From positions 14,924 through 78,923 of IMG/VR virus record IMGVR_UViG_3300006204_000008: a stretch of 64,000 nucleotides of DNA. One strand, written 5' to 3'. This document shows, in pieces, positions 14,354 through 41,192 of this stretch. Both the position numbers and the translations under genes were made by a program. The notes beneath the pieces are model-generated. The model ran no database searches. It saw only the letters and a program-made list of their open reading frames with translations, and was not told where the DNA came from. Source of the DNA: a virus (Duplodnaviria; Caudoviricetes). Position 1 is the stretch's first letter, and each line of letters starts with the position of its first letter.

Positions 14354-14436
14354 CCTCACCGCAAGCAGGCGGCGGGAAGAGCCAAGCTGGGCTGAATCTA
14401 TTTCCAGAGATGGAGATGGGTTTAGCCCAGTTTTTT
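14354..14436 (+). promoter_or_regulatory. Conserved late-leader hairpin plus long terminator, copy 1
   Basis: CCTCACCGC-AAGCAG-GCGGCGGG-AAGAGCCAAG then about 20-bp hairpin and T6. Confidence 0.8.
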
Positions 14437-14470
14437 ATATCAAGAAATCAAGGGAGGAGGTGATGAGGAC

Positions 14471-15001
14471 GTGAGTGTAAGTGAAAACTACGGCTTTCAG
14501 CGCTGGCCCATGCTGCGGGAACCTTCCCGGGCTGTGACAGACGCCATGGAGAGAGCCATGCGCTTTATGGACAGCTGCAAAGAATCGGTCCTCATTTTGG
14601 AAGGGATGCCTATGACGGCACTGTGCATCCACAAGCAGGCCCATACCTACGGGGAGCTCTGGGACCAATTCGGTGAGATACTGCACCAGCGTCATTTTAT
14701 CCAGGAGTTTCCTGGAACGCCGGAGCTGGACGAAAAGCCGGACCTGAGCAGAGCCTTCGAGATCATGCTGGACTGCATGGAGCGGGTCATTACAGCCCTG
14801 GGAGAGTTCATCTTGGCGGCGGACGCCAACCGTCTTTATCCCCTGGGCCGGGAGGCAGAAAACCTGCAGATGGAGGTCAGCGGGGATATGACCCGCTGGC
14901 TGGAAGCGGCAAGGCTTTGGGAGGATTCGGCGGGAAGCAAGGTATCCTTCGAGAAATGGATGAGGGACTTCTTCGATGCAGGACCGGATACGGCGGAATG
15001 A
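14471..15001 (+). CDS. Hypothetical helical protein, first gene of head operon
   Basis: GTG start behind GGAGGAGG. Confidence 0.8.
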   Translation: MSVSENYGFQRWPMLREPSRAVTDAMERAMRFMDSCKESVLILEGMPMTALCIHKQAHTYGELWDQFGEILHQRHFIQEFPGTPELDEKPDLSRAFEIMLDCMERVITALGEFILAADANRLYPLGREAENLQMEVSGDMTRWLEAARLWEDSAGSKVSFEKWMRDFFDAGPDTAE

Positions 15002-15014
15002 GAGGGGAAGTGCG

Positions 15015-16424
15015 ATGAAAGCAGTGAAAACGAAGCCTCTGCTGGACCCCATTCGTGTGGTACAGACGGGAGAGCTGAAAGTTCTGCGCAGACAGAACGC
15101 CTTTCTCTCCGACGTGGAGCTCTGGGTACTCAACGACCTGGTCAACCGAAATAACTGGCGGTTCGTCAACCTGGAGGAGCATCGGGCCCTCTTTGCTGGG
15201 ACGCCGATCCTCATCGCCTACATCCACAAGGGAGCGGGCATCGGAGACGGCCATAACTTTGAGCTGCGCCGGGACCCCAAGACGGGGAAGAACCGTCCGT
15301 CCTTCACGGCGGACACGGCGGAGCGGATCGTGGGATCTCTGTCGGATGATCCCGGCGATATCCGGCTGGAAGAGAAAGGCGGCGTGACTTGGGTGGTCGC
15401 CCGGGGAACACTCTGGAACTTCTACGCGCCGGAGCTGGTGGACAAGATCACGGCGGATGCTGCGCAGGGACGGACCATGTCGGTGAGCATCGAAGCCCTG
15501 GTCCAGGAGTTCCACATAGGCGAAGAGGGCGAGGAAGTGGAGGACCGGTGGATTCCTCTGGGCACCACCATCCTGGGGGACCACGTTGCCCCTGCAGTGA
15601 AAGACGCCCGGATCGTAGCAATGCAGGAGGGCGGGAGCTTTGAGGAATTGAAGGTCCGGGCAGCCTCGTATGCGAGAAACAACGGCAACCAAAAGAACGG
15701 AAGAGGAGGGAGCGCAAAGATGAACAAGAAAGCCATGGAACAGCTGGCTGCTAAGTTTGAGGGCTATAAGGTCCTTGCTGTGTCCAAGGACGGACGGCGT
15801 GTCATTCTTTTGGACCAGGGGGGCGGGGCCTACGGCTACACCTTCGGGGAAGAGGACCAGGGCGAAGTTATCCAGGCCAAGATCAAGCCCACGGAGCTGA
15901 GTGTCCGCACCGCGGCTGAGGACGGCGAAGAGGGCCTGAGCCTGGACATGGACGACATTCTGGACCATGTGACCAACAGCGTTCGGGATCAGGCAAAGAC
16001 CATTGAGAACCTGAACAAGCAGCTGGAGGAGGCCAACGCCGCCGTGGAGGCCATGAAGCAGGCCGAACAGCAGCGCCGGGTGGACAGCGTCAAGGATGTG
16101 CTCACACGCACTCTGGAGGAAATCAGGGAAAACACTGGCGCGGATGTCTCCGAGCTGGCGGAAAAGGTCAAAGAGCTGTCGGATAAAGCGGAAAACTATG
16201 CGCAGCTGGAGGACAGCGAGGGCAAGTTCTGCGGCGCAGACCAGGCCAAGAAAGACCTCCTGGCGATTCACGGGGAACTCTGCATCAAGAAAGCGAAGGC
16301 GCAGAAGCTGGCGGAGAAGAACACCTACATCTGGGATCATCTGCGGCGCAGCAGCGCCGGCAGCGGTGAGGATGATGGCGGGATTGCCGGACTGCTGGCC
16401 AGAAACGGAATCACCAACGAGTAA
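15015..16424 (+). CDS. Putative prohead protease-scaffold fusion
   Basis: Two genes upstream of the capsid; globular N-half, coiled-coil acidic C-half; internal in-frame SD+ATG at 15720. Confidence 0.65.
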   Translation: MKAVKTKPLLDPIRVVQTGELKVLRRQNAFLSDVELWVLNDLVNRNNWRFVNLEEHRALFAGTPILIAYIHKGAGIGDGHNFELRRDPKTGKNRPSFTADTAERIVGSLSDDPGDIRLEEKGGVTWVVARGTLWNFYAPELVDKITADAAQGRTMSVSIEALVQEFHIGEEGEEVEDRWIPLGTTILGDHVAPAVKDARIVAMQEGGSFEELKVRAASYARNNGNQKNGRGGSAKMNKKAMEQLAAKFEGYKVLAVSKDGRRVILLDQGGGAYGYTFGEEDQGEVIQAKIKPTELSVRTAAEDGEEGLSLDMDDILDHVTNSVRDQAKTIENLNKQLEEANAAVEAMKQAEQQRRVDSVKDVLTRTLEEIRENTGADVSELAEKVKELSDKAENYAQLEDSEGKFCGADQAKKDLLAIHGELCIKKAKAQKLAEKNTYIWDHLRRSSAGSGEDDGGIAGLLARNGITNE

Positions 16425-16447
16425 GGAAAAGGGAGGGACAATTCAAG

Positions 16448-17047
16448 ATGGCCTATATTGAAAAAACTGCTTTTGAGGCGCGGATCACGAACAACGAGTT
16501 CAACGAGCTTGTGAATGTGACGGGCCGATTCCAGACGGATGAGACGGATGACGTGTGTTCGGCCGGGATGCTGTGCGTGAGAGGGGATCAGCTTCCTTGT
16601 GCTGGTTTTCCTGCCTCTGTGAAGAACGAAAATGCTTGGTATATGACGGCTGCGGCATCAACGGTGAATGCCAACGAAGTGATTTATGCCAGCAACACCT
16701 ATGACTGGAACCTGCTTCAGGACCCCGTGACAGGCAACGCCTATGCCGTCGGGGTGGAGACCCTGGGTCTGCCCATCCCCAAGGGCCGGGACGGGACTTT
16801 CACGCAGATCGTGTTTGACGGCGTTCATGTGTACCGCTTTGGTGAGGGCAACTTCTCTGCGGAAGTGGGGAGTAATACGTTCTTCACGATTGCGGATGGG
16901 CTTCTGGTGCCTGCCGCCGCTGCTCCGACGGCTGCCGGGGCCATTTACTTCAAGCTCCGGGGTACCGGCAGCTTCACGGTAGGTACCCGTCAGGCATTCG
17001 GTTATGTGGACGTGGTGGCGTGCAAAGTCAACGCTGCCGGCAACTGA
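16448..17047 (+). CDS. Putative capsid decoration/cement protein
   Basis: Position directly before MCP; beta-rich 199 aa. Confidence 0.6.
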   Translation: MAYIEKTAFEARITNNEFNELVNVTGRFQTDETDDVCSAGMLCVRGDQLPCAGFPASVKNENAWYMTAAASTVNANEVIYASNTYDWNLLQDPVTGNAYAVGVETLGLPIPKGRDGTFTQIVFDGVHVYRFGEGNFSAEVGSNTFFTIADGLLVPAAAAPTAAGAIYFKLRGTGSFTVGTRQAFGYVDVVACKVNAAGN

Positions 17048-17064
17048 GAGAGGAGGAAGACAGA

Positions 17065-18303
17065 ATGAAACTTTCCTTGAACAGCATTCCTCAGAGTGTA
17101 TTTTCTGTGCGGGCGTGCGACACCCAGGACAAGACCAGCGAGAGGGCGAACCTGGTTGCCTTGGGCCGTCTGCTGAACTTCTCTTATGCGGAGCAGGGTA
17201 AGCGGATGCTGGATAAGGCCAAGGGCATGGATGTCATTGGCGACCGTTTGCCGCTGACGGCTCAGGCATACCGGGAAACCAACGAGAAGTTCCGCCAGGG
17301 CCATCTGCTCTATGCGGCGAAGCGTCTGTGCGACTTTACAGGTCAGCAGGCCCCGGAGGATTTTGAGGCATTCAAGCGTCAGTCCCAGAACTACTACGGA
17401 AACCCTGACTTCTACCGGATTCTCCAGGGCATCTATGTAGAGATCATCACGCCGATCCTGCCGTCTGTGTACTCTGAGGCGGTGAGCCTGTTTGCTGAGG
17501 TGGTAGAGGTCGGCTTCGGGGAGACCTACACGGTGCAGGTAGGCTCCAACGACATTCCTGTGTTCCAGGATTCCTCCTGGGGCGCTTCTCGGTCGGTGCC
17601 CCGCAATCGCTTCTATGATGCGTCTTACACGCTGAATCCCTCTCCGAAGAGTGCGTGGATCACGGCAAAGTGGACCCAGCTGGTGGGTAACGGCATGGAC
17701 TTCGGACGGTTCTTCGCCAACATTGCCGCCGGTATGTATGCCAAGACCATGGGGATGTTCAATCAGGCGATGGTTACGGCCACTGCTGACACCAGCCTGA
17801 TTCCTGCCGGCTTGAACTACACCTTCAACACCCCCAACTGGGTTGCGGCATCTGCCAAGGTGGCGGCACTGAACGGCACGATTATCAGCAACGTGTTCGC
17901 CACGGGGGCGGCCGTGCCGCTGAGCAAGGTGCTTCCCACCAACGTGACCGGCAGCACCAACGTGAATATGGATGCAGCCATCGCCACGCTGCTGGGCGCA
18001 GACTATACCCGCAGCGGCTACCTGGGCGAGTTCATGAGTGTTCGCCTGATTCCCTTCATGGATGCTGTGGTACCGGGCACCCAGAACACCACGGTTGACC
18101 TGATCACCAGCCAGACGGATATCTGGATGATGGCGGGGAACGGACTGAAGCCTCTGACGATGGCCTTCAACCGCGACACACCCATTACCATTGAGATGGA
18201 CCCGACCAAGACGGCGGATTTCGAGATCGGATTCAACCTCACCATGGCGCTGGATTCCGTAGCGGTGTTCGCCGGCAAAATCGCGCACTTCACGGTGGCC
18301 TGA
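17065..18303 (+). CDS. Major capsid protein
   Basis: 412 aa, strong SD, biased codon use, followed by a terminator, head-operon position. Confidence 0.75.
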   Translation: MKLSLNSIPQSVFSVRACDTQDKTSERANLVALGRLLNFSYAEQGKRMLDKAKGMDVIGDRLPLTAQAYRETNEKFRQGHLLYAAKRLCDFTGQQAPEDFEAFKRQSQNYYGNPDFYRILQGIYVEIITPILPSVYSEAVSLFAEVVEVGFGETYTVQVGSNDIPVFQDSSWGASRSVPRNRFYDASYTLNPSPKSAWITAKWTQLVGNGMDFGRFFANIAAGMYAKTMGMFNQAMVTATADTSLIPAGLNYTFNTPNWVAASAKVAALNGTIISNVFATGAAVPLSKVLPTNVTGSTNVNMDAAIATLLGADYTRSGYLGEFMSVRLIPFMDAVVPGTQNTTVDLITSQTDIWMMAGNGLKPLTMAFNRDTPITIEMDPTKTADFEIGFNLTMALDSVAVFAGKIAHFTVA

Positions 18304-18308
18304 ATTTT

Positions 18309-18342
18309 CCGGGGGGAGGGGAGTTCCCTTTCCCCCGCTTTA
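18309..18342 (+). terminator. Terminator-like hairpin after capsid gene
   Basis: GGGGGAGGGG/CCCTTTCCCCC stem, short T tail. Confidence 0.55.
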
Positions 18343-18385
18343 TGCACCTGCGGGAAGAAGCCGGTTCAACTCCGGCGAGGTGCAT
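18342..18385 (+). ncRNA. tRNA-minihelix-like element (acceptor-like stem plus T-arm)
   Basis: ATGCACCT/AGGTGCAT enclosing GCCGG-TTCAACT-CCGGC. Confidence 0.5.
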
Positions 18386-18483
18386 TTTGACGGAATGCTA
18401 TACTAAAAACAGAGGGAACGCAGGGCGGGCAAGCCCCCGCCGCCTCTGACGATAAAACCAAAGGATGGAAAGGAGCGGACCCA

Positions 18484-19266
18484 ATGGCAAGACAGAAGAA
18501 GACGGATCTGCTTCCCGAAGGGGAGCTTATGGAGGAGACCGGCGCGGCCGGCATGACCCTTGGCGAGAGTTCGGAAGGGGAGCCTCCCACGGAAGAGGCG
18601 GAAACCAAGATGGAGACGATTTCTCTGGAAGACAGCGATCTTGCTGTCGAGATGGAGAAACTGCGCCGGCAGAATGAAACCCTCGTGGAACAGATGGAGA
18701 TCATGAAGGAGCAGCTGCAAAAGCAGAGTGTCCCGACCGTGGTCCAGGTATCCGCCGAAACGGAGCGGGTTCGCTTCCTGTGGCAGGCAGAGGTAGCCAA
18801 CGAAAACATCAAGACCTTTGGGGAAGGCGGGATGTTTGGCCGGATCGTGGGCAAAACGGGAAGCTTCTATGTCCCCAAGAGCGACTTGGCCCGGGTAATG
18901 GATGCGGAAAACCGCCTGTTTTTGGACAAACGCTGGCTGATCGTGGTCAGCGGTTTGGATGAGGAGGAGCGGGAAGCCCTGGGCGTGAATTATCACGACG
19001 GGGAACTGCTTGATCGGAGGGCGTTTGAGAAGATGGTGGAGCTTGGGGACGAGCTGTTGGAGCTGTACCCTGAGCTGTGTGAGGGGCATAAGGTGATGGT
19101 GGCTCAGCGTTACCGGGAAGCCTTTGACCGGGGAAGCCCCCATGTGACCCGGGAGCGTGTGACTGCCCTGCGTGACATGGCCCAAACGGCCCATATCACA
19201 CCCAACCCCTTCACCAGCATCCTGCAGGAGATGAACAAGCGGGAAGCCGGAGAGGGCGAAGGCTGA
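18484..19266 (+). CDS. Hypothetical head-region protein
   Basis: 260 aa, SD AAGGAG, acidic N-terminus. Confidence 0.8.
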   Translation: MARQKKTDLLPEGELMEETGAAGMTLGESSEGEPPTEEAETKMETISLEDSDLAVEMEKLRRQNETLVEQMEIMKEQLQKQSVPTVVQVSAETERVRFLWQAEVANENIKTFGEGGMFGRIVGKTGSFYVPKSDLARVMDAENRLFLDKRWLIVVSGLDEEEREALGVNYHDGELLDRRAFEKMVELGDELLELYPELCEGHKVMVAQRYREAFDRGSPHVTRERVTALRDMAQTAHITPNPFTSILQEMNKREAGEGEG

Positions 19267-19277
19267 GGAAGAGACCT

Positions 19278-19368
19278 ATGGCAAAGTGTATAAATACCAC
19301 TATTTACCAGTGGGGGGGGGCGTTCTGACCTCCTGATTGGCGAAATGCCCAAAGGGGGGTGCGTCTGA
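19278..19368 (+). promoter_or_regulatory. Poly-G leader uORF switch A (G9, predicted OFF)
   Basis: SD GAGGA+ATG 19278; G9 19312-20; stop 19326-28; G8/G11 would read to TGA 19366-68 overlapping ATG 19368. Confidence 0.8.
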
Positions 19369-19877: not shown

Positions 19878-19938
19878 TATCCAAAGTTATATTTTGCCAT
19901 AGGTGTTGCGGCACTGATTTCATAAAGGAGGAATCTGC

Positions 19939-20643: not shown

Positions 20644-20655
20644 GGGGAAAAGGCT

Positions 20656-26448: not shown

Positions 26449-26569
26449 ACAAAACGTGAAGTCTTTGCAGTTACGAAAAAGAATCACCCTTCCGCCGAAG
26501 CGAAATCCTGAGCGGGATTCCACAGAAAGCCTTTTTGTGCTATAATCTTTGTGAAGGGAGGCGAAACCT

Positions 26570-26881
26570 GTGCAGAGATGGAAAAACCGGTGGCTTCGCC
26601 GCAATGCTGGGGCACGTGCGGCGCTGCGGACACGGCCCGCTTCGGCGGATGGAACAAGGCGGTGCAGCGACTGCGCAAATTTCCTCTGCTGCCCGAAGGG
26701 GAGCAGGGCCGGAAATCATGTAGACTGCTTTGTGCCCTACACTATGCTGCGGGATCAGGAACGGCGCAGGGAAGAGCACAAGGAAGTGGATCAGTTTGCA
26801 GCTGTGATGGGGGGCATTCTTGCCATCTCCTGTGTTGTTCTGGTTTTGATTTTCGTCATCCCGTATGTCCTTGGTATTTGA
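26570..26881 (+). CDS. Small protein with C-terminal transmembrane helix
   Basis: SD GGAGG; upstream TG.TATAAT at 26541-46; hydrophobic tail. Confidence 0.6.
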   Translation: MQRWKNRWLRRNAGARAALRTRPASADGTRRCSDCANFLCCPKGSRAGNHVDCFVPYTMLRDQERRREEHKEVDQFAAVMGGILAISCVVLVLIFVIPYVLGI

Positions 26882-26918
26882 TAGAATACGGACAAAAAAA
26901 CATACTTTTGAAAGATTC

Positions 26919-27008
26919 CCTCGCCGCAAGCAGGCGGCGGGAAGAGCCAGAAGGGCTGAACAAACCTCTCGGAAGAAACCGGGAGGGGCGTTCAGCCCTT
27001 CTTTTTTT
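26919..27008 (+). promoter_or_regulatory. Conserved late-leader hairpin plus long terminator, copy 2
   Basis: CCTCGCCGC-AAGCAG-GCGGCGGG-AAGAGCCAG then AGAAGGGCTGAAC/GTTCAGCCCTTCT stem and T run. Confidence 0.8.
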
Positions 27009-27030
27009 ATTCGGGAAGGGAGGAAAGAAA

Positions 27031-27456
27031 GTGGGAGAGAGCGCAAATGTCGCGGCATTTATTGCCAAGCTGGACACAGCGATTGACGAAGTGATGCAGA
27101 CAACAGTGGCGGACGGCGCGAAGGAAGCTCTTCAGAGGGCCGCACAGTCAGAAGTGTATTCGTATTCCCCGCTATTCTACAGCCGCAGAGGGACAGCAGG
27201 GGGCATCGCAGACAAGAGGAATATGGAAACGGAGTACGGCGGTTTTACGTTGACCATCCAGGACGTGGCCTCCTGGCAGCAGATTTACGGCGGGAGCGCC
27301 CCGGGGGAACGGTTAGCGGAGGCCCTTGCATCTGGGTCAGCCCGGTATCACTTTCATCGGGCGGGGCCGAGGCCCTTCCATGAAAAGGCGGAGAAGGAGT
27401 ACGGCGCACTGTTTGCCGCTGATTTGATTGGTGGGCTTCGGGCCAAAGGTTTTTGA
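27031..27456 (+). CDS. Putative tail-completion protein (HK97 gp10-like position)
   Basis: GTG behind GGAGG; immediately before tape measure. Confidence 0.55.
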   Translation: MGESANVAAFIAKLDTAIDEVMQTTVADGAKEALQRAAQSEVYSYSPLFYSRRGTAGGIADKRNMETEYGGFTLTIQDVASWQQIYGGSAPGERLAEALASGSARYHFHRAGPRPFHEKAEKEYGALFAADLIGGLRAKGF

Positions 27457-27474
27457 GGAAGGATGGGATAGAGC

Positions 27475-30400
27475 ATGGCAGAGATCGTCACGTTAAAAGT
27501 TAATGTTGACCGGGGACAGCTGACCGCCCTCCAGGCGGACTTGGCGAAACTACAGTCTAAGACGGTGGACATTAAGGTAAACGCCTCCGGGTTTGCGGCA
27601 TTGGACAAGAACATCGTCAAGAACATCAACAGCGTATCCCGCTTTGTCAATGCCGCCTCCCGACTGGAAAAGACCCAGGCCCAAGTGCGGATTGCCCAGG
27701 AGCGGACGGCGCAGGCAACTCAGCGGAGGATGACGGCGGAGAGCCAGCTTGCCGCACAGCAGGCGCGGCTTGCAACGCAAAACGCCAGGACGGCAACGGA
27801 GGAAGCACGGCTTGCCACCCAGACCCAGAAAACCGCCACGGAGGAAGCCAAGGCAGCGACCCAGGCCCAGAGAGTGGCCCAGGAGCGGGCCAAACTGGCT
27901 ACCCAGACCCAGCGGACCGCGACGGAAGAGGCGCGGCTTGCCACCCAGCAGGAACGCACACGGACCGCCCAGGCCCGGGCGTCGGCGTCCCAGCAGAGGA
28001 TGATCCGCTCTACTAACGAAGCGACCCAGGCCAACAATAACCTCATTACCAGCCTTGCCAGCAGCGCAAAGGGAATGGCACAGTCGATGCTGACGGCGGC
28101 GCTGATTTATAAGCCTGTCCAGTCGTTCAAGGAAGCTCTGGAAACCATGAAGGCTGTGGATGCCGAGCTGGTCAACGTGGGCAAGGTGACCAAGTGGCCG
28201 GAGGAACGGTTGAAGGCCATGGGAGAGCAGGCATACAAGACTGCTTCTGAATATGGCGTGGCGGCGAATGAGTATTTGTCGAGCGTAACGGAGTTTACTC
28301 GGGCAGGCTATCTGGGACAGAGCGAGGCGTTGGCAGAGCTGGCGAACAAGACGCAGATCGTGGGTGACACCACGGCAGATGTGGCCAACCAGTTTTTGCT
28401 GGCGGTGGACAAGGGCTACCAGATGGGCGGTTCTGTTGAGAAGCTGAGCGCGGTGCTGGACGGGGCCAACGAGATTGGCAACAACTTTGCAACTAGCATC
28501 CCGAAAATTGCCGAGGGCCTTGGTAAGGTGGCGCCCATCGGCGCACAGGCCAAGGTGGGCATTGACGAACTGTCTGCCGCCATCGGCACGGTCACAGCCG
28601 TCACGCAGAGAAGCGGTACTGAGGCCGCGACGGCCCTTCGCGCCCTGTTCTTGAACATCATGGGCGACACTAAGACGGAGATTGACGAGGGCGTGACCTG
28701 GACCACAGGTGAAATCGCGGGTTTGCGGGACGTGCTGAATATCTATGCCTCCGACGTAGTGGCGGCGGCGGATGCTACGGGCAGCCTCATCAATCCCATG
28801 GAAGCCATCGGGGCGCTGTCGCAGTCGATGAAGGACGGCGTTCTGACGGAACAGAAGCTGATGGAAATGGTTTCCGACATCGGCGGCAAACTCCGTACCT
28901 CTCAGCTGCTGGCCTTGATCCAGAACTGGGATATGTACGAGGCGATGCTGGATAAGTACGAAAACGCCGCCGGGTCTGCCGACCGGGAAGTGGAACGGGC
29001 CATGGATTCCTGGGGGAGAAAGACCGAGGTTCTGAAGAACACCTGGACACAGTTTGTTTCCCATATCGTAGAGACAGACACCATCAAAGGGACCATTACC
29101 GGGGTCACTGACGTCATTTCCGGGTTGGACACCCAATTTGGCCATGTAGCACTGAGCGTGGGGACATGGACTCTGGGGATTATGGGCGCGGCAAAGGCCG
29201 TGAATGCGCTCGGAACGGCCTTTGCTTCCTCAAAACTCATGTCGGGGATCAACTACCTGAGAAGCATGAATGCCCTGGGCGGCGCACAGGGCGTGATGAA
29301 AGGGCTTGGATTCCTGATAAAAACTAACCCGGTGATTGCCGGGGGTCTTGCCTTTGCGGGCCTGTATACTTTAGTCAAAGAGCTTCGGGAAGTCGCTCCG
29401 ACCGTGGAACACGCCAGAGACGAGATAGAAAAACTGCAAGCGCAGCTAGAAGAGGGTTTTGGTGGTGGCAGTGAGTACGAGGACCTTCTCTCCCGGGCGG
29501 ATAGTCTGACAGCGGCCGAGCAGCAGCGGCTTACCATTTTGAAAGCGCAGAAGCAGGCGTTGGAAGGGCAGATCGAGGACACCAAAGAGTTGGAATTTGC
29601 CCGTTTCCAGAATAACCTTGGCATTGGGAACGAGCGTCAGGAAATGTCCGGGAAAACCATAGACGAAACCCGGCTTGACAAGATGAGAAAGACGCAGGAG
29701 AGCTTGACAGAGGCTTTCCAAGCGGGTGAGATCGGTGCGACGGAGTTCAAGAAGGGTCTGACAGATCTGATTTCGGAGAGTGAGGAGTATTACAACGCCC
29801 TTGTGAAGTATAAGGACGCGGGATACGACCTGACCCAAGCTCAAAAAGCCACGATTGAGCGGTATGAATCTATCGCGCAGCTGCTGGGCACAGCAGAAAA
29901 TGGGTATCTGTCGGCGGCAGTGGCCTTGGAGCGGTTTGACGCCGCAGCGGAGGTAGGGGGGAAGACCCTGCTCAATGGAGATGCTTTGAAAAAGTCCCTG
30001 GAAGAAGCAGGGGCAACGGCGGAGCAGATCGAATCCATCCTGGCGAACATCGGCGAGGATGAGAACACCATCCTGATTGACATTGAAGCTGACCCGAAAG
30101 CCGCCTTGGATGCTTTGAAGGAAGTGGGCATTGCAGCGGAGAACGCCGACGGGACGATTGAGATCGACTATTCCGCGTTCAGCGGACTCATGAGCCAGCT
30201 GGGCTACACAAATGAAGAGGCTTCTTCCCTGACGCAGAATCTGAGAGAGCTGGGAAATGTCACATTCACGAATCTTCCCGGACAGATGGATGCGACCGGA
30301 GCGAAAATCGAAAGCGTTTCAGAGCGGACGCAGAATGCGAAGAGACAGCTGGACGCACTGGGCAGGACGAAGGCCCAGCCGAAGATAGAACTGAAAGATG

Positions 30401-33123
30401 ACGGCGCACAGGCGCGGATCGAAGCCATCAAGAGCAGTCTGGCCGGAATCCCGCGTAGCATCAACGTTGCCATCCGTGTAGCAAATGGGACCGCAGGGGC
30501 TATTACCGGAAGTATGCTCAGCCCATATTTGCCGAAACGAGCAGACGCAGAAGGCACCGATGCCTTCCCCGGCGGTAAAACCCTGGTCAACGAGTTGGGG
30601 CCTGAAATCATCCGGGAAGGAGGCCGGGCCAGGATCGCCGCCGGAGGCAGGCCGACCATCACCACGGTAGCGCGGGGAGCGCAGATTTTTACGGCGGAAG
30701 AGACGAGGGATATTCTCTCCGGGCGCGGGCAGGATATCCCACTCGCGTCTTTTGCCTTTGGTGCGAAGAAATCCGGGTCTATTTCCTCGCTATCCTCTAA
30801 CGGAACAGGTCTTTCGGAATTTGCCCACAGCAGACCGGCCGGAAGCCAGACCAGCAGCGGGAGCGGCAGCCCAAGCAGTGCAGGGAAGAAGAGTGCGTCC
30901 GGTTCTACCGCGAGAAAGTCCAGCTCTGGAAGCGGGAGTTCCGGGAAGAGCGGCGGCAGCAGCGGAGGCGGAAATGATGCACAGCTGGAGGCATTGCAGG
31001 CGGATCTTGAGCTTTTGAAGGCGCAGTATAGCTTTCTGGAAGCCTCCGGGGCCGGAGCCGATGCACTCACCGCCAAGTCCAAAGAAATCCAAACGGCCCT
31101 GCATAACATCAACAACTACCTCCGGGCTACCAACGGGGAGGAAAAGGACATCGTGTCCAATTCCACCGACTGGTGGAAAGAACTTGAAACGATAAAATCC
31201 ACCATCACGGAGGCTTACGAGGCGGAGCGGGATTTGCTGGACACGGAGATCGAGCTTTCCCAGCGGCAGGGCCTGAATGTTGGGACGCAGCTGGAGAAGT
31301 ATCGTCAAATTCAGGATTCCCTACACAAGCAGGCGCAGTATTTAAGGCAGATCGGCGCATCTCAGGCGGAGATCAACAAGCTGTCTTTGGAATGGTGGGA
31401 TGTTCAAGAGGACATCAAAAAGGCTCAGGAGGATCTTTGGGACGAGTTGAGTGATGCTGTTGATTGGGAACTTCAGCGGGCGGATGAAGCGCGGGAAGCT
31501 GAGATTAAGGCCATTGATTACCTCATTGAGCAGAAGGAAGCGGCGCGGGATGCGGCGAAGGAGGAGAAGGAGACCCAGGAAAAACTATTACGCATTGAGG
31601 AGGCACGGGCCGCGCTGGAAAACGCGAAGAATGAGCGAACGGTCCGAATGTTCAACGCCCAGACCGGGCAGTGGGAATGGATTGCAGACCCCAAAACGGT
31701 GAAGAGCGCCCAGGATGAGTTGGATGAGGCGGAGAAGGACTGGAGGGAATACCAGGAAGAGCTCGCATACCAGAAAGAAATCAGGGAGATGGAGCGGCGC
31801 AAGAAGGCCATCAACGATCAATATGATGAGTTGGAAAAGTCCTGGAAGAAGATCACCCAGAGTATGCAGCAGCCAGCCCGGAAAATCAGTGACATTCTTG
31901 ATGACATTGCTAAGAATGGCACGCCGCAGATGAAGGCGCAGATTGGTAATGTAAATAAGCTTCTGGGCGACCTTGGGAACTACATCAAGGGGGTTATCGG
32001 AATCGGTACAGGTGACAGCTACTTCGACGAGTATTGGAGTCAGCCCTTTGACCAGACGAAGGTTGACGAGGTTGTCACCCAAGGCAAGGACTACAGTCAA
32101 GACACAGCGGACTATCACGCGATGATGGAACGGGCCTCGAATGTGGATGACTTTTACTACTTTGCGGCACAGCGGCAAGCCAAAATGGAGGCGTTAGGCA
32201 TCAAGGCAGGGGTGGACAAGGACGCCAACGGGAACGTTTATAAGACCAATGAGCAGATTTGGAAGGAATGGCAGGCAAATCATAAGGGGTGGGAAAATGT
32301 TCCGACGAACATGGGAGCGCCCTACACACCGGTAACCGGCGGTGGGAAGACTTATGCTTCAGTAAACGGCAAGGCCCCGGCTGGGATGAAGGTTGGGGAC
32401 CAAGTAGTTACCCAGGGCGGAACTTATGAAATCACGGGATTCAACCCCGATGGTACTTATCAATCTAAGTATGTGAGTGATACCACTAAGGACACCTATA
32501 AGGGTAGTTACGCTAACAGCTCCGGTTCTTCCTCATCTGGAAGCTCTGGCAGCAAGGGAAGCGGTTCTTCCTCCGGGTCCTCTTCTTCCGGCAACAAGGG
32601 TGGCGGGACATATGCTTCTGTCAACGGTAAAGCCCCCTCCGGCCTGTCAGCAGGGGACAAGGTAGTCACTCAGGGCGGCACATACAAAATCACAGGTGTC
32701 AATAAGGATGGGTCCTACCAGTCTCAAAAGGTGTCAAGTCAGACAAAGAGCGACTATGAGAAAAATGGCGGCACCTACTCCAAGAAGTACGATGAAGGCG
32801 GCATCCTTCGCGGCCTGGGCGGCATCAAGGCTACAGCGGAAAATGAAATGGTCCTGCCCCCGGACATCACTGCCGCCCTGCTCAAACCAAGCGCGGACGC
32901 TGTGTTCCAGCAGAGAATGAAGGAGCTGGGGCTGATTTATGGTACGCCCCAGCGTCTTGGACCTCAGCTGGCGGGCATGGCCAGGACAGGGAACAACTAT
33001 GACCACTCTGGCCCGGAGTATCATATGGGCAATATCACCCTCAGCGAGGCCCAGGCAAAGAGCATGACAGTCTATGATCTGGCGCAGAAGGCGAGGAATC
33101 TGACTCTATTCAATGGAAGATAG
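27475..33123 (+). CDS. Tape measure protein
   Basis: 1882 aa, helical Ala-rich repeats, TP901-type core, hydrophobic segment, Ser/Gly linkers. Confidence 0.92.
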   Translation: MAEIVTLKVNVDRGQLTALQADLAKLQSKTVDIKVNASGFAALDKNIVKNINSVSRFVNAASRLEKTQAQVRIAQERTAQATQRRMTAESQLAAQQARLATQNARTATEEARLATQTQKTATEEAKAATQAQRVAQERAKLATQTQRTATEEARLATQQERTRTAQARASASQQRMIRSTNEATQANNNLITSLASSAKGMAQSMLTAALIYKPVQSFKEALETMKAVDAELVNVGKVTKWPEERLKAMGEQAYKTASEYGVAANEYLSSVTEFTRAGYLGQSEALAELANKTQIVGDTTADVANQFLLAVDKGYQMGGSVEKLSAVLDGANEIGNNFATSIPKIAEGLGKVAPIGAQAKVGIDELSAAIGTVTAVTQRSGTEAATALRALFLNIMGDTKTEIDEGVTWTTGEIAGLRDVLNIYASDVVAAADATGSLINPMEAIGALSQSMKDGVLTEQKLMEMVSDIGGKLRTSQLLALIQNWDMYEAMLDKYENAAGSADREVERAMDSWGRKTEVLKNTWTQFVSHIVETDTIKGTITGVTDVISGLDTQFGHVALSVGTWTLGIMGAAKAVNALGTAFASSKLMSGINYLRSMNALGGAQGVMKGLGFLIKTNPVIAGGLAFAGLYTLVKELREVAPTVEHARDEIEKLQAQLEEGFGGGSEYEDLLSRADSLTAAEQQRLTILKAQKQALEGQIEDTKELEFARFQNNLGIGNERQEMSGKTIDETRLDKMRKTQESLTEAFQAGEIGATEFKKGLTDLISESEEYYNALVKYKDAGYDLTQAQKATIERYESIAQLLGTAENGYLSAAVALERFDAAAEVGGKTLLNGDALKKSLEEAGATAEQIESILANIGEDENTILIDIEADPKAALDALKEVGIAAENADGTIEIDYSAFSGLMSQLGYTNEEASSLTQNLRELGNVTFTNLPGQMDATGAKIESVSERTQNAKRQLDALGRTKAQPKIELKDDGAQARIEAIKSSLAGIPRSINVAIRVANGTAGAITGSMLSPYLPKRADAEGTDAFPGGKTLVNELGPEIIREGGRARIAAGGRPTITTVARGAQIFTAEETRDILSGRGQDIPLASFAFGAKKSGSISSLSSNGTGLSEFAHSRPAGSQTSSGSGSPSSAGKKSASGSTARKSSSGSGSSGKSGGSSGGGNDAQLEALQADLELLKAQYSFLEASGAGADALTAKSKEIQTALHNINNYLRATNGEEKDIVSNSTDWWKELETIKSTITEAYEAERDLLDTEIELSQRQGLNVGTQLEKYRQIQDSLHKQAQYLRQIGASQAEINKLSLEWWDVQEDIKKAQEDLWDELSDAVDWELQRADEAREAEIKAIDYLIEQKEAARDAAKEEKETQEKLLRIEEARAALENAKNERTVRMFNAQTGQWEWIADPKTVKSAQDELDEAEKDWREYQEELAYQKEIREMERRKKAINDQYDELEKSWKKITQSMQQPARKISDILDDIAKNGTPQMKAQIGNVNKLLGDLGNYIKGVIGIGTGDSYFDEYWSQPFDQTKVDEVVTQGKDYSQDTADYHAMMERASNVDDFYYFAAQRQAKMEALGIKAGVDKDANGNVYKTNEQIWKEWQANHKGWENVPTNMGAPYTPVTGGGKTYASVNGKAPAGMKVGDQVVTQGGTYEITGFNPDGTYQSKYVSDTTKDTYKGSYANSSGSSSSGSSGSKGSGSSSGSSSSGNKGGGTYASVNGKAPSGLSAGDKVVTQGGTYKITGVNKDGSYQSQKVSSQTKSDYEKNGGTYSKKYDEGGILRGLGGIKATAENEMVLPPDITAALLKPSADAVFQQRMKELGLIYGTPQRLGPQLAGMARTGNNYDHSGPEYHMGNITLSEAQAKSMTVYDLAQKARNLTLFNGR
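27750..27980 (+). repeat. 11-residue tandem repeats in TMP N-terminus
   Basis: Recurrent TQ(K/R)TATEEARLA units, 33-bp DNA periodicity. Confidence 0.75.
32341..32727 (+). repeat. Duplicated about 43-aa domain in TMP C-terminus
   Basis: TYASVNGKAP.G..GD.VVTQGGTY.ITG.N.DG.YQS at 32341-32469 and 32599-32727 with Ser/Gly linker. Confidence 0.8.
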
Positions 33124-34162: not shown

Positions 34163-34218
34163 ACGATAGACCATTTTTCAAATGTCAAAGATTACTTAAC
34201 GTCCCATCCCCCAGGACA

Positions 34219-34491: not shown

Positions 34492-34518
34492 CATCTGCGT
34501 AAAAGGAGGAGTAAACGA

Positions 34519-35478: not shown

Positions 35479-35494
35479 TGGGAAAGGAGGAAGC

Positions 35495-37351: not shown

Positions 37352-37689
37352 GCAGCGCAAAGGAAAAAGTGTGGAAGGTCTGGGCTATGCCTTTCGGCGA
37401 AGATACGTCCCGGGAGGCCCAATCCTTTCCCTGCTGCCGGATCACGAAAGACTATATTCTGGTCTACAGCCCGCAGCCGCCCGAGGGAGCGGCGGTGGAG
37501 GTTGGAGCGGAAGAACTGTACCGGCTGACCGGGCAGGACAATGACTGGCTCCTGGGGGCACTCCTGGAGCAGCTGGGACGCAGGATGAAGGAAGAGGAAA
37601 AAGAAATCCAGTCCCGCCTGCGGGAGAAGGTGGAACAGCTGGCTGCTGAGCTGCAGAAGGAAGCAGAGAAAGAAGGGCTGCCCTTATGA
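37348..37689 (+). CDS. Hypothetical protein
   Basis: 4-nt overlaps at both ends. Confidence 0.7.
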   Translation: MSSAKEKVWKVWAMPFGEDTSREAQSFPCCRITKDYILVYSPQPPEGAAVEVGAEELYRLTGQDNDWLLGALLEQLGRRMKEEEKEIQSRLREKVEQLAAELQKEAEKEGLPL

Positions 37690-39467
37690 GAGAAGCACGG
37701 AATCTGACGGAAGATTTACAGCAGGCGGCATTCGGCTCCTACCAGGAAATCTTTGATACGTTCCGCACTTTGTCACAGAAGTATGGGAACCTGTCGCAGG
37801 ACGGCATGATCGCCGCCTTTACGCGGGTGAGCGGGCAGGGGGCTTTCCTCAATAACCCCTACATACAGAACCGGCGGGTGAAAGGTATTTCCTCTCTTCC
37901 GGCGGACTTCACCAAGGACCAGGTGGGGGAGATGCTGCGAAGCGCGGAGAGCAACGAGCAGCCCCTGCGGCAGGTGGAGCATGGGTTGGAGTATACGGCT
38001 TATCCGCTGCTCCACATGAGAAAGGTCTACCAGGACCTCCTGACCTATCACAACTGCTTTACGCCGGCTTTTGTAGACAGGGAGGACGTGAAGAAGGATT
38101 CCTTCTGGCGGGAATGGCGGCTGCTGGAAAAGATGAGACGGGAACTGAACCCAGGACGATGGGCCCATCAGATCGCCGGTCAGGCCATGCAGGAGGGGAA
38201 GGTGTTCTATGTTCCCCGGGTGGAGGTGGACAAGAGCCACAATGAAGTCTGCCACGCCTTTCTGCAGCAGCTGCCGTCGGACTGGACCAAAATCGTGGGG
38301 TTCAACAATAAGTCGAAGTATACGGTGTCGTTCAATCTCTTCTACTTCCTGCAGCCGGGGACGAACCCGCTCCAATTCGGGGACCTGTTCCTGCCTTACC
38401 TGGACCCGTTCTTTTCCCTCCTGCCGCCAAAGCCCCCGAAAGGGACGGGCAGGACGGTTCTGTACGCATCCAAGAATGCCTTGGACCTGACACGGTTTGA
38501 GGCCATGCAGAAAGCGGGGACGCTGGGAGGAGAAGTGGATGCCTATTATCAAAACGGGCGTTGGTTCTATTGGGTGACCCTCCCCGTGGAGAAAGTCTTT
38601 CCCTTTGAGATAGACGATGCCAACCGGGCAGTGGTATCCCCGTGGACGGGCCTGTTTTTGAGCCTGATCCAGCTGGCCCAGTATGAGCAGGTGCAGCTGG
38701 AGCTGGTGCAGAACCCGCTGATTTCCCTGCTGACGGGGGAAATCCCTTATTATGATTCCCAGTCCTCCAAACTGGAGGATACCTACCGGCTGTCCAGGAC
38801 GGGCCAGAAGATGTTTGAAAGTTTCTGGTACCAGATGTTGGAGCAGAGCAACACCAGCGGGATCGGCCTTTACATGGCTCCCCTGGCAAATATGAAGCTC
38901 CACACGCTGTCGGAAGCCCCTGGCGCCACGGAGATCAGTTCCAATGGCTACGCTTACACCATGGCGAAGGCAGGGCTGGCGGGCATCATCCCCACGAAGG
39001 AGGATCCGAAGGCCGGACTAGCGCAGATATCATTCAAGATCGAGAGCCGCTTTGCACAGCAGATTTATGGCGATTTTGAGCGGATGGTAAACTGCATCGT
39101 GAAGGGCCTGCATCTGAACTACCGATGGACTTTCCGTATGTTTGGAGATCTGGCGACAGACCCGGAGTTGGAGGAGGGCGCCCGAAAAGGTATGACTTTG
39201 GGCATCCTGCCAGACACCATTTTGTACAACGCCCTGCACGACCGCAGCATATTGGATGATATGTCGGTATCCTTCGCGGTGGCGGAAAGTGGTATCATGG
39301 ACGCACGGCTTCCCTTGGTGACCAGCTACAGCGCCAAGAATCCGGACAGCGGTCTGCCGCCGGAGGTAAAGCACGAGCTGAACCCTGGGGGACGCCCGGA
39401 CAGCGGAGGGAAGGCTACGTCGGAAGGCCAGGAGCAGGACATTGACCAGGGAGGAGGCACGGTGTGA
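37686..39467 (+). CDS. Portal protein
   Basis: 593 aa downstream of TerL; C-terminal PGGRP motif typical of portals. Confidence 0.75.
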   Translation: MREARNLTEDLQQAAFGSYQEIFDTFRTLSQKYGNLSQDGMIAAFTRVSGQGAFLNNPYIQNRRVKGISSLPADFTKDQVGEMLRSAESNEQPLRQVEHGLEYTAYPLLHMRKVYQDLLTYHNCFTPAFVDREDVKKDSFWREWRLLEKMRRELNPGRWAHQIAGQAMQEGKVFYVPRVEVDKSHNEVCHAFLQQLPSDWTKIVGFNNKSKYTVSFNLFYFLQPGTNPLQFGDLFLPYLDPFFSLLPPKPPKGTGRTVLYASKNALDLTRFEAMQKAGTLGGEVDAYYQNGRWFYWVTLPVEKVFPFEIDDANRAVVSPWTGLFLSLIQLAQYEQVQLELVQNPLISLLTGEIPYYDSQSSKLEDTYRLSRTGQKMFESFWYQMLEQSNTSGIGLYMAPLANMKLHTLSEAPGATEISSNGYAYTMAKAGLAGIIPTKEDPKAGLAQISFKIESRFAQQIYGDFERMVNCIVKGLHLNYRWTFRMFGDLATDPELEEGARKGMTLGILPDTILYNALHDRSILDDMSVSFAVAESGIMDARLPLVTSYSAKNPDSGLPPEVKHELNPGGRPDSGGKATSEGQEQDIDQGGGTV

Positions 39468-39468
39468 G

Positions 39469-39654
39469 ATGGGGAAAGTGAGAGTAAGTGCGGCGGACCT
39501 GCGGTGCATCAACGACGCCCTGGAATCCGGGTGTGATGTGCGCATCCAGAATGTAAAAGGCGGCTACCGCATCATTGCGGAGCGGCCCAAGGTATTGAAG
39601 CGAGAACCGGACCGGGAAAACAGAACGGAGGAAAATACATGGCAAAGTGTATAA
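39469..39654 (+). CDS. Small hypothetical protein
   Basis: MGKVRVSAADL...; coupled to portal stop. Confidence 0.65.
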   Translation: MGKVRVSAADLRCINDALESGCDVRIQNVKGGYRIIAERPKVLKREPDRENRTEENTWQSV

Positions 39655-39730
39655 ATACCACTATTTACCAGTGGGGGGGGGGCGATCTAGCCTCCTGACT
39701 GGCAGAATGCCCAAAAGGGGGTGCGTCTGA
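39639..39730 (+). promoter_or_regulatory. Poly-G leader uORF switch C (G10, predicted OFF)
   Basis: SD GGAGG+ATG 39639; G10 39673-82; TGA 39696-98; G9 gives TAG; G8/G11 reads to TGA 39728-30 overlapping ATG 39730. Confidence 0.8.
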
Positions 39731-40221
39731 TGGCATACGTTGCCCCCAACTGGAAGAATGGCGCGGCCCCAGCGCTGGACGCTGCCGCCTTGCAGGCAAT
39801 CAGCGATGCCATTGTGGAGAACCAAGGAGATATTGCCTCACTCAAAACAGCAGTGGCAGAGAAAGCAGATGTGGTAATCGGGTCCTATGTTGGCACGGGT
39901 GGCTATGGAAGTTCGCGCCCGTCTTCGCTCACATTCCCTAGTCCAGTCGAGTTTCTTTGGATATATGCTATTCGTTATGGAGATGGCAGCATAGGCTCTA
40001 CGCTTTATCGAGGGATGACTACCCTTCCCACCCTCACATTGTTGATGAATACTTGGCGCACGACACGCGGTTTTGATCTTATTAACCACAGTTTGACTTC
40101 TGCCGCTGCAGCAAGGCGCACCAACTCTGGAAAAACTGTAGAGTGGTACAATAGTAATTCGGATAGTTCACAAGGTAGTATCAGTGGCTATACTTACTAT
40201 TATTTGGCTGTATTGCAATAG
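39730..40221 (+). CDS. Adhesin/receptor-binding-like paralogue C
   Basis: Same N-terminus; GSYVGTGGYG..LTFPSP...WYNS...Q.S..GYTYYYLAVLQ. Confidence 0.75.
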   Translation: MAYVAPNWKNGAAPALDAAALQAISDAIVENQGDIASLKTAVAEKADVVIGSYVGTGGYGSSRPSSLTFPSPVEFLWIYAIRYGDGSIGSTLYRGMTTLPTLTLLMNTWRTTRGFDLINHSLTSAAAARRTNSGKTVEWYNSNSDSSQGSISGYTYYYLAVLQ

Positions 40222-40266
40222 GTCAGTGCAGAGAGCAATTCTCTAAATAAGTAGAAGGAGCATAAA

Positions 40267-40602
40267 ATGAAACTAATCGAAATCGCCGCTCTGGAAAACG
40301 GGGCGCATAGAAACCAGGAAATCTATGGGGTTGAAGATATGGAAATACCCAAGGGATACGCCGTCATCCCAGAGGATATGGAGATACCGGAAACCTTTCC
40401 GTTTGTGAACGTCAAGGCTGAGCCCGTGACACGCACGATGGATGTCGGCAGGGACGAAGAGGGCAACCCTGTTCAGGACACCTTCGAGCGCATGGAGGTA
40501 GTGGAACTCACCCCAGGCGAAGTTCCACCCCCGGAGCCAGAGCCTCCCAGAGAGCCCACCGACAGCGAGATTTTAAGCGCCATGCTTGGTCTGGCGCAGT
40601 AA
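40267..40602 (+). CDS. Tail-fibre-associated small protein
   Basis: MKLIEIAALENGAHRNQ pattern recurring next to Clostridia phage fibre genes; Pro-rich end. Confidence 0.65.
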   Translation: MKLIEIAALENGAHRNQEIYGVEDMEIPKGYAVIPEDMEIPETFPFVNVKAEPVTRTMDVGRDEEGNPVQDTFERMEVVELTPGEVPPPEPEPPREPTDSEILSAMLGLAQ

Positions 40603-40617
40603 GAGGAGGGAAACGAA

Positions 40618-41046
40618 ATGGACAAGCTGCAAGCAGCCGAACAGTTCCGCCGCACCTTACAGCTCTTTGCGGCAAGCTTGGGCGAGGATCAGGCCAGGGA
40701 AGTGGCAACCATCTACCCCCACTATGCGCCTGGGACTGTCTACACCAAGGGCCAGTACATCATTGCGGGGGAGGACGGCAACGGGGACCCGCTGCTTTAT
40801 CGTGTTGAGCAGGACCACAGCAGTCAGGAGGATTGGCCCCCAAAGAGTACGCCGTCCCTCTATACCTGCCTCAGTCTGACGGAAGAAGGATATCCCATTT
40901 GGAGTCCGCCCAGCGGGGCGCAGGACGCTTATAACATGGGTGATATCGTTTCCTGCGACGGGAAGCTTTGGAAGTCGGAAATCGACGGGAACACGACGCA
41001 ACCCGGGAGTGACGGGCGGTGGTGGAGTGTTTATCATGAGGAATGA
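40618..41046 (+). CDS. CBM5/12-like (chitin-binding-type) domain protein
   Basis: LYRVEQDHSSQEDWPP...W..P.GAQDAYNMGDIV..DGKLWKS..DGN...PG...W. Confidence 0.7.
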   Translation: MDKLQAAEQFRRTLQLFAASLGEDQAREVATIYPHYAPGTVYTKGQYIIAGEDGNGDPLLYRVEQDHSSQEDWPPKSTPSLYTCLSLTEEGYPIWSPPSGAQDAYNMGDIVSCDGKLWKSEIDGNTTQPGSDGRWWSVYHEE

Positions 41047-41068
41047 GAACACACCCCACTGACATTGT

Positions 41069-41096
41069 TTGACATTCCCCAAGTTTATGGTATAAT
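41069..41096 (+). promoter_or_regulatory. SigA promoter of tail-tip operon
   Basis: TTGACA(41069-74)-16 bp-TG.TATAAT(41091-96). Confidence 0.8.
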
Positions 41097-41113
41097 CAGC
41101 TTAATATGAAATT

Positions 41114-41192
41114 CCTCGTCGCAAGCAGGCGGCGGGAAGAGCCAAGCTGGGCTGTTTTCTCCTGAACAAGGGGAAGGCAGCCCAGCTTTTTT
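41114..41192 (+). promoter_or_regulatory. Conserved late-leader hairpin plus long terminator, copy 3
   Basis: CCTCGTCGC-AAGCAG-GCGGCGGG-AAGAGCCAAG then AAGCTGGGCTG/CAGCCCAGCTT stem and T run. Confidence 0.8.

Follow-up and report, generated by a model that had tools for sequence, protein, structure and literature searches.

In the HK022 put and lambda N/nut boxB systems, RNA polymerase is made processively resistant to terminators, and the RNA element does not overlap a terminator. The ribonucleic antiterminator (RAT) site of BglG/LicT is a single hairpin of ~29 nucleotides (nt), which is read by the CAT domain and serves phosphotransferase system control. Antiterminators of the RAT type have been reviewed (PMC12591593). 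The targets of ANTAR proteins (EutV, NasR, AmiR) are tandem hairpins, in which the second hairpin overlaps an intrinsic terminator at its 5' base (Ramesh et al. 2012, PMC3369931). The textbook late-gene systems (Q, N, put, RinA/ArpU) derive from few model hosts, and late-gene switching in the temperate phages of the dominant gut Clostridia is largely unknown. From gut metagenomes comes the orphan RNA motif gut-2 (Rfam RF02990; Weinberg et al. 2017, PMC5737381), for which no published function was found in the searchable literature. Here, we describe three copies of a two-hairpin RNA element in a 64,000-nt stretch of phage DNA (hereafter, the window), covering bases 14924-78923 of a viral record of 78.9 kb that is rated complete (G000; IMG/VR record IMGVR_UViG_3300006204_000008). 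Judging from sequence comparison, each copy is probably a transcription attenuator composed of the two-hairpin RNA, an intrinsic terminator and the operon behind it, with a small phage protein as the likely factor.

The dual hairpin and its fused terminator

The 31-nt pattern CCTCRYCGCAAGCAGGCGGCGGGAAGAGCCA occurs on the plus strand of the window at 14354-14384, 26919-26949 and 41114-41144 with 0 mismatches, while none of 100 dinucleotide shuffles contained it; the three copies reported in the initial annotation at 14354, 26919 and 41114 are hereby confirmed. A pattern scan of the entire record returned the same three copies and no more, and a covariance-model scan run without filters found no fourth copy in the window. 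The copies differ at two positions only, both in the 5' arm of the first hairpin (P1), where the pairs are G-C, U.G or A.C, as the annotation had already described together with the invariant AAGCAG loop. A 24-nt block, GCAAGCAGGCGGCGGGAAGAGCCA, stretching from this loop to the start of the second hairpin (P2), is identical in all three copies. What has to be corrected is the description of the element as a single hairpin. It is composed of an 8-bp P1, a GAAG linker and a 4-bp P2, so that the AAGAGCCA stretch, previously taken for a tail, comprises the linker and the 5' strand of a covarying P2, as placed by the alignment to gut-2.

The individual copies, all on the plus strand, were delimited with a covariance model (R1) built from 18 aligned sequences and, for copies 1 and 3, also with the gut-2 alignment. 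Copy 1 (14354-14393, 53.4 bits) has P1 at 14355-14362 paired with 14369-14376 around the AAGCAG loop, the linker AAG at 14377-14379, and P2 formed by AGCC (14380-14383) and GGCT (14390-14393) with the loop AAGCTG. In copy 2 (26919-26957, 48.2 bits), P1 pairs 26920-26927 with 26934-26941, the linker occupies 26942-26944, and AGCC at 26945-26948 pairs with GGCT at 26954-26957 around AGAAG. For copy 3 (41114-41153, 50.8 bits), the corresponding positions are 41115-41122 with 41129-41136 for P1, 41137-41139 for the linker, and 41140-41143 with 41150-41153 for P2, again with the loop AAGCTG. At the RNA level, the window elements are thus characterized by the P1 loop AAGCAG and by a P2 that reads AGCC, loop (AAGCUG or AGAAG), GGCU. 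A separate terminator-like hairpin at 18335-18390, 3' of a 427-amino-acid (aa) gene (17020-18303) that could not be assigned to a named family, contains GGGAAGAAGCC, which resembles the linker and the P2 5' strand; scoring only 12.3 bits with R1 (E 0.2), it may be a remnant of the element or a chance likeness.

Each copy runs directly into an intrinsic terminator on the same strand: at 14384-14438 (~23-bp stem and T run, starting within the P2 loop), at 26949-27009 (a 13+8 bp hairpin and a run of 7 T) and at 41144-41194 (20-bp stem and T run). These are the long hairpins with T runs noted earlier behind each copy. The three terminator hairpins are unrelated in sequence, and in all of them the 5' arm takes in the P2 loop together with the P2 3' strand. 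Since these parts of P2 make up the base of the terminator 5' arm, P2 and the terminator base are mutually exclusive. The three leaders, folded from the likely transcription start to the T run, gave -47 to -55 kcal/mol, with z-scores from -6 to -7 (n=3). The minimum-energy fold in 25 of 27 copies consisted of P1 and a long hairpin that consumes the P2 3' strand, with the U run at its end.

Copies 1 and 3 are preceded by sigma-A promoters that agree with the consensus at 12 of 12 positions and carry an upstream TG. These are TTGACA-16 nt-TGcTATAAT at 14302-14329 (+) and TTGACA-16 nt-TGgTATAAT at 41069-41096 (+), and their -10 hexamers end 25 and 18 nt before the motif, respectively, in line with the annotation, which had placed consensus promoters 18-25 nt before these two copies and TG.TAGAAT before copy 2. 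The latter, by sequence reading a possible extended -10 element (TGaTAGAAT) at 26879-26887 (+), overlaps the stop codon of a 103-aa open reading frame (ORF) at 26570-26881; a better promoter-like site (10/12, with TG) is located 370 nt upstream of copy 2, at 26519-26546. The phage is temperate, encoding a large serine recombinase (52286-53632) with an adjoining CI-like repressor. Because fully consensus sigma-A promoters stand before virion genes of a temperate phage, a block after initiation is needed. Constitutive promoters giving abortive RNAs of about 100 nt, as the annotation had proposed, fit this phage group well, with expected products of ~90-100 nt. This part of the model does not extend to the whole family, since in most relatives the element lies within an operon and has no promoter of its own; from such promoterless members it is 15-40 nt to the ribosome-binding site of the late gene that follows.

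All three operons in question encode virion proteins. Behind copy 1 (14471-16424, +) there are genes for a 176-aa protein (14471-15001) and a 482-aa protein (14976-16424), the latter with relatives at 33-66% identity that carry Pfam YonD_N, followed by more virion genes. The region behind copy 2 (27031-33123, +; phrog_4211, E 1e-67; PF27376 on homologues) encodes a YomN-like 141-aa protein (27031-27456, GTG start) and an 1882-aa tape measure protein (27475-33123). Copy 3 is followed (41215-48010, +; phrog_1887 tail protein, E 2e-38) by genes for a 695-aa protein (41215-43302) and a 1550-aa tail protein with immunoglobulin-like repeats (43358-48010). Pfam YonD_N, YomN, YomU_Tube and YomW on relatives mark these virion genes as SPbeta-like. 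Together with the fusion of P2 and terminator, this gene content supports the view that the copies have the anatomy of conditional terminators placed before late operons.

The gut-2 family and a small basic protein

Contigs of relatives were obtained via the products of the genes that directly follow copies 1 and 2. At 60-78% identity, orthologues of the 176-aa protein had the element upstream of the same gene, with P1 fully covaried: the P1 stems were wholly different yet paired (e.g., CUUUUCUG/CAGAAAAG and CUCUACGC/GCGUAGAG), and the linker and P2 were conserved. In a MAFFT alignment of 18 copies from the window, its relatives and gut-2, 93.4% of cells were paired as compared to 69% in shuffles, and double changes occurred in 53 cells as compared to 15.5. 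Covariation was seen in 7 of the 8 pairs of P1 and 2 of the 4 pairs of P2, and sliding the partners by 1-3 columns lowered pairing to 29-46%. When 35 distinct copies from several phage groups were considered, all 12 pairs covaried, this alignment being fitted to the model. About ten positions are conserved, most strongly at the junction, namely the CC before P1 and the GAAG linker. The loops of relatives read AAAUGG, AAACGG, AAUCGG, GAGUAG and, in L060, AAUGGG. The P1 loop and 3' strand are near-identical among the copies of one phage and divergent between phages, which fits a phage-specific reader.

A covariance-model search, one of the checks suggested in the annotation, extended this picture to contigs that had played no part in building R1 and were fetched via the YomN-like protein. 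In one of them, L068, whose proteins are mostly 58-81% identical to those of the window phage, copies were found in front of the 174-aa/YonD_N genes, of YomN and the tape measure gene, and of the 690-aa and 1553-aa tail genes, which are the three orthologous positions. Searches of viral contigs with the window variant of the pattern, exact or relaxed, returned nothing or chance matches inside genes, blastn against cultured phages gave no real match, and no motif copy was present in L004-L012, which encode relatives of the 482-aa protein at 35-39% identity.

Several other readings of the element were discarded in the course of this comparison. A palindromic DNA operator is excluded by the complete covariation of the stems and by the G.U pairs, and kissing between the P1 and P2 loops is not supported by a linker of 3-4 nt and variable P2 loops. 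No support was obtained for a tRNA or T-box connection, an idea that came from tRNA genes near the site in L055 and L066. A tRNA lies directly upstream of the 176-aa orthologue in both contigs, at ~9760-9830 in L055, before the motif, and at ~2080-2150 in L066, where motif and terminator are absent and the tRNA stands in their place.

At its gathering thresholds, Rfam reported no family at the motif. With E-value reporting, gut-2 was the sole family matching it, with 19.1 bits for copy 1 (E 1.8) and 22.0 bits for copy 3 (E 0.33) in the 9 kb searched; both scores lie below the gathering threshold of 39.8 bits, and copy 2 was not listed at all. At copies 1 and 3, the model aligns over 1-48 of its 48 positions with both helices paired and the same linker. 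The elements thus have the gut-2 architecture, i.e., a first hairpin of 8 bp that has a 6-nt loop and, close to its base, a conserved non-canonical pair, the GAAG linker, and a second hairpin of 4 bp with a loop of 6 nt (5-6 nt if all copies are considered). They also share its context, including the phage late region, the fused terminator and a gene of the same small protein family upstream, although this context is outside the Rfam definition. Twenty-one viral contigs were retrieved with the gut-2 consensus pattern, 13 of the 20 scanned exceeding the Rfam threshold, and the P2-fused terminator was present in 21 of 21, even though it lies outside the Rfam model. The two groups differ in their loops (AAGCAG/AAGCUG in the window, AAUYGG in gut-2), in P2 (AGCC/GGCU against GRCC/GGYC) and in copy number, the window phage having three copies, two with their own promoters, and gut-2 phages a single promoterless one. 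By alignment and architecture, then, we place the window element in a divergent, sub-threshold branch of the orphan gut-2 family. The annotation, which did not recognise the motif as a known riboswitch, had overlooked this relative, though it was right in that no function is assigned to it; since gut-2 lacks an assigned function, the Rfam search that the annotation recommended, which returned gut-2 only, does not link the motif to a known family of unrelated function.

Two contigs are worth mentioning for the other RNAs they carry. In L014 (4750-5191, minus strand), a gut-2 copy is flanked by a skipping-rope RNA upstream and a GP20-b RNA located just after the terminator and before the next gene; this copy scores 57.4 bits with R1, and its sequence-identical twin 34.4 bits in Rfam, under the cut-off. 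In L025 (4444-4540, minus strand), a skipping-rope RNA alone was reported.

An all-against-all comparison of ORFs from motif-bearing phages and prophages brought up a small protein family as the top cluster, with members in eight genomes of the gut-2 and prophage groups. Given its detection by profile in the group of the window phage, it is the one late-region family found in all compared phage groups. Most members have 41-47 aa (range 41-90), and those detected by profile in the window's group have 59-88 aa. The proteins are basic (median isoelectric point 9.6), and in the AlphaFold prediction one helix and a beta hairpin form the confident core, with a predicted local distance difference test score of ~90 over residues 17-47. 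The window phage has a single copy of the gene at 39469-39654 (+), with the same helix and beta hairpin; the product has 61 aa if translated from ATG at 39469, the probable start, which is preceded by a GGGAGGAGG ribosome-binding site, or 70 aa if translated from TTG at 39442. The gene stands last in a conserved block of four genes (319, 618, 113 and 593 aa) whose function is unassigned. A run of ~10 G is found at 39674-39683, 20 nt past its stop codon and before one of the genes with a repeated N-terminal module described further below.

The RNA and the protein gene are found together well beyond the window. The relatives L055 and L057 have this gene too, 0.8 kb upstream of the motif copy in front of the 176-aa orthologue. 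Measured from the RNA, the stop codon of the protein gene was at -10 to +25 nt in 11 lineages and 0.3-1.5 kb away in five others. Five further lineages fetched via the protein all (5/5) had an R1 match just downstream and the same P2-fused terminator fold; they included phages with lambda-like (Portal_2, ClpP, cap_E) and SPP1-like (SPP1_portal, Mu_F, Phage_scaffold) head modules. Among 151 sampled Oscillospiraceae genomes, R1 detected the RNA in 6 and the small protein was found in 13. All ten protein hits with E <1e-7 fell in RNA-holding genomes (in G053, the RNA scored only 10.2 bits, E 0.3), and nine of these ten adjoin the RNA or sit within ~1 kb of it. In the one genome with the RNA but no clear hit to the protein, a weak protein hit directly adjoins the RNA. 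At least 249 clusters of the protein are present in a large protein collection, the named ones as "hypothetical protein", and none had a Pfam hit. As RNA and protein move together across unrelated head modules, we prefer the protein as the reader of the RNA, and the product of 39469-39654 is the best candidate for the antiterminator and the most likely partner of the RNA. As far as the searchable literature shows, this link between an RNA and a mini-protein is new.

Other regulators were also looked for. Pfam and PHROG scans of ~60 phage ORFs, many of which had no match at all, revealed no antiterminator family. Among most of the early genes and those lying between the early region and the first late promoter, these scans identified HTH_26, RecT, YqaJ, SSB, IstB-like and Rep_1 proteins, methylases, and a multi-zinc-ribbon protein with matches to the HNH-endonuclease family of PHROG. 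A search for the ANTAR domain (PF03861) gave no candidate in the phage record; the records G001 and G002 gave 16-bit matches only, a level also reached in 13 of 14 control genomes. A 103-aa arginine-rich ORF (13741-14052) was considered as an N-like peptide and rejected, being of low complexity, overlapped by ORFs on both strands and unconserved in relatives. A protein with the signature PLTLEELREMD..PVWV, common with gut-2 phages (8623-8982 of the full record), was likewise set aside, having neither a family nor a positional link to the RNA.

Proposed late-gene gating and its alternatives

Our results lead us to propose the following scenario. P2 would act as a 4-bp antiterminator that shares a strand with the bottom of the terminator, next to the U tract. 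By default, the 20-bp terminator would win, and transcripts coming from the sigma-A promoters or from upstream genes would stop after ~90-100 nt, keeping the virion genes silent in the lysogen. A trans-acting factor would clamp P1, the linker and P2, thereby withholding the bottom 4-9 bp of the terminator, and with the terminator base blocked, RNA polymerase would enter the head, tape-measure and tail operons. If this factor is the small protein encoded at 39469-39654, its accumulation would open all three gates together. The RNA structure, its fusion to the terminator, the conserved position in front of late genes and the co-occurrence with the protein are seen in the sequences themselves; default termination, read-through upon binding and the identity of the binder are what we infer here. 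A trans-acting phage factor, as invoked by the annotation, is still the most plausible trigger, with a concrete candidate gene now available and read-through as its predicted consequence. It is also tempting to suppose, if only tentatively, that the gut-2 RNA and its basic mini-protein of ~42 residues make up a mobile two-part cassette, i.e., a new class of RNA-binding antiterminator that gates virion genes. Such a cassette would possibly, and we suggest this with the same reserve, serve Oscillospiraceae phages with at least four unrelated types of head modules, being deployed at three sites in the phage studied here.

Several observations speak against this scenario. In the window, the candidate gene is 1.46 kb away even from its nearest copy, being located upstream of copy 3, and the proteins of the window and gut-2 groups are only moderately homologous (hhalign probability 67%, E 5e-5). 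The protein matched neither a known RNA-binding family nor a known fold: Foldseek and VIA-align gave nothing above noise, and a sequence search of the PDB with the small protein returned only designed proteins and HU at E 0.3-0.6. The small protein could instead be a head-assembly protein, kept by synteny behind a large portal-type gene. Its gene was unseen in L060, L068 and L072, where the sequence does not span the expected block. The terminator is absent in L080, and L076 has no clear one. In the gut-2 group, the promoterless gate is found in the middle of the late operon, between upstream portal/Mu F genes (with terminase further upstream in the contigs that extend so far) and the capsid genes, making a timing switch harder to justify; that it introduces a delay or a threshold before the capsid genes is a guess on our part. 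Finally, four mouse-gut RNA runs hold the phage only as short contigs of low depth, with no information on ends or strand, and these contigs may stem from DNA carry-over.

The same evidence can be arranged in other ways. If the hairpins bound RNA polymerase directly, terminator resistance would arise without any protein, as in put, and timing would be left to promoter control alone. Two promoter-proximal hairpins followed by a terminator do resemble HK022 PL-putL-tL; moreover, the carrier phages share no family with a recognised RNA-binding or antiterminator domain, and unrelated phages agree in the nucleotides of linker and junction, as might be expected if the target were a universal one like RNA polymerase. 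However, constitutive antitermination from two consensus sigma-A promoters would express virion genes in the lysogen, a put mechanism would not require P2 to overlap the terminator base as strictly as it does (25/27), and the P1 sequence is phage-specific, which makes such a scheme improbable. One might also see small RNA genes here, with ~95-nt products acting in trans, as sponges for the small protein or as lysogen regulators, and no gating of what lies downstream. Copies 1 and 3 are indeed complete promoter-to-terminator units, Rfam files gut-2 under small RNAs, and a regulatory role of its own is reported for the short RNA that is terminated behind the late promoter of a Shiga toxin (Stx) phage (PMC7547250). 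This seems an unlikely full account, as most members are promoterless, at 15-40 nt from the next late ribosome-binding site, and the late genes behind them would then be left with no other visible route of transcription; the two roles are, in any case, compatible.

It is rather unlikely, too, that we are dealing with ordinary terminators at module boundaries, with the conserved hairpins before them serving just to protect or mature the 3' end of the messenger RNA upstream, for instance the one for the small protein. In many phages, the small ORF ends directly before the element, and structured 3' ends are known to protect messenger RNAs, but neither the covariation of a 4-bp hairpin competing with the terminator base nor the copies standing directly behind a promoter, with no upstream gene in the transcript, would be explained. 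A compact conserved RNA with its strongest conservation at the junction (CC before P1, GAAG linker) and a classic antiterminator/terminator expression platform brings to mind a small-molecule riboswitch, in which a metabolite or nucleotide signal would stabilise P1-linker-P2 and prevent termination. We find this very unlikely: some ten conserved positions and variable loops offer little for a binding pocket, only virion genes and no metabolic genes are controlled, and the tight linkage to one small protein is left unexplained. Least probable of all appears the reading of the element by a host regulator of the ANTAR family, which would couple phage late genes to a host signal. In its favour are the two small hairpins with mostly A-starting hexaloops, the second overlapping the terminator 5' base, and the P2 consensus AGCC-N5-6-GGCU, which resembles the 13-mer AGCAANGRRGCUY (PMC3369931). 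Yet loop position 4 is C or U in most copies instead of the required G, the GAAG linker has no counterpart in ANTAR sites, and no ANTAR domain was found in the phage.

If our proposal holds, the orphan gut-2 family gains a testable function. The wider RNA family as defined here covers several phage lineages and prophages of ~4-7% of the sampled Oscillospiraceae genomes. Were the pairing of RNA and protein true, it would represent a new case of RNA recognition by a mini-protein, as well as a portable antiterminator-target module (a gene of ~130 nt and an RNA of 100 nt) usable as a genetic switch. In uncultured gut phages, the elements could help in annotating where late operons begin, and the short RNA produced by termination may be a marker of lysogeny. 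As for the host, the single genome matching the strict pattern was an Oscillospiraceae metagenome-assembled genome, and the phage sequence is present in mouse-gut libraries.

We would also like to comment on other features of this phage. For ~1.2 kb before the first late promoter (13100-14300), the frames on either strand are of low complexity and none makes a convincing ORF; the region is unconserved at the protein level, relatives are likewise ORF-poor over a long stretch there, and a packaging site or an origin may be located in it. A twister-sister ribozyme (10008-10085, 65.7 bits) and a type II hammerhead ribozyme (10660-10724, 45.6 bits), both on the minus strand, flank a 196-aa ORF (10085-10675, also minus), and a tRNA is located at 5853-5930 (-). 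At least seven genes share an N-terminal module of ~35 aa (MRLMAYVAPNWKNGAAPALDAAALQAISD...) and differ in their bodies; they start at 19359, 25924, 33519, 39721, 48150 and 49087 (+) in the window, with another at 13351-14046 of the full record, and in L068 the same type of gene is found directly upstream of motif copies B and C. The early region outside the window (1-14923 of the record) encodes a class-V aminotransferase (cysteine desulfurase-like, E 4e-76), a Rep_1 replication protein, an SNF2 helicase fused to an N6/N4 methylase, and a DUF1599 nucleotide-modification protein.

Comparison with known antitermination systems

The initial annotation likened the element to nut/boxB, put and Q. 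These parallels hold for the logic only. The overlap with the terminator points to a competition between hairpins. In the case of put and nut, the likeness consists of promoter-proximal RNA hairpins upstream of terminators in phage operons, and there is no similarity in sequence or size and no link in Rfam. With lambda pR'-tR' and Q, the locus shares a strong constitutive late promoter, immediate termination and a short RNA, comparable to 6S RNA and to StxS (PMC7547250), along with termination in the lysogen and lytic read-through, both of which are proposed here. Q, however, binds promoter DNA and modifies a paused polymerase, whereas the conserved element of this phage is an RNA structure competing with a terminator.

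The RAT and ANTAR systems come closer in this respect. As in RAT, a stabilised hairpin would overlap the 5' arm of the terminator, its stabilisation by a protein being our proposal, although neither the CAT domain nor the RAT sequence is present in this phage. ANTAR targets resemble the element in their tandem mini-hairpins with loops of 5-6 nt, mostly hexaloops beginning with A, in a second hairpin mutually exclusive with the terminator 5' base, in the presence of several gates across one gene cluster, and in the dimeric reader to be expected. They differ in that each of their two hairpins has a hexaloop whose first position is A and whose fourth is G, while the window copies have C at position 4 and only L060 (AAUGGG) fits; in their linker, which is of 5-12 nt and variable instead of 3-4 nt and conserved; and in a first hairpin of 3-6 bp instead of 8. 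The cognate protein would differ as well, being an unrelated mini-protein of ~42 aa here, with PF03861 not found in the phage. Overall, since P2 overlaps the terminator, we favour hairpin competition of the ANTAR/RAT kind over a modification of RNA polymerase, and on this comparison the element is best read as a factor-stabilised dual-hairpin antiterminator rather than as a strict ANTAR target.

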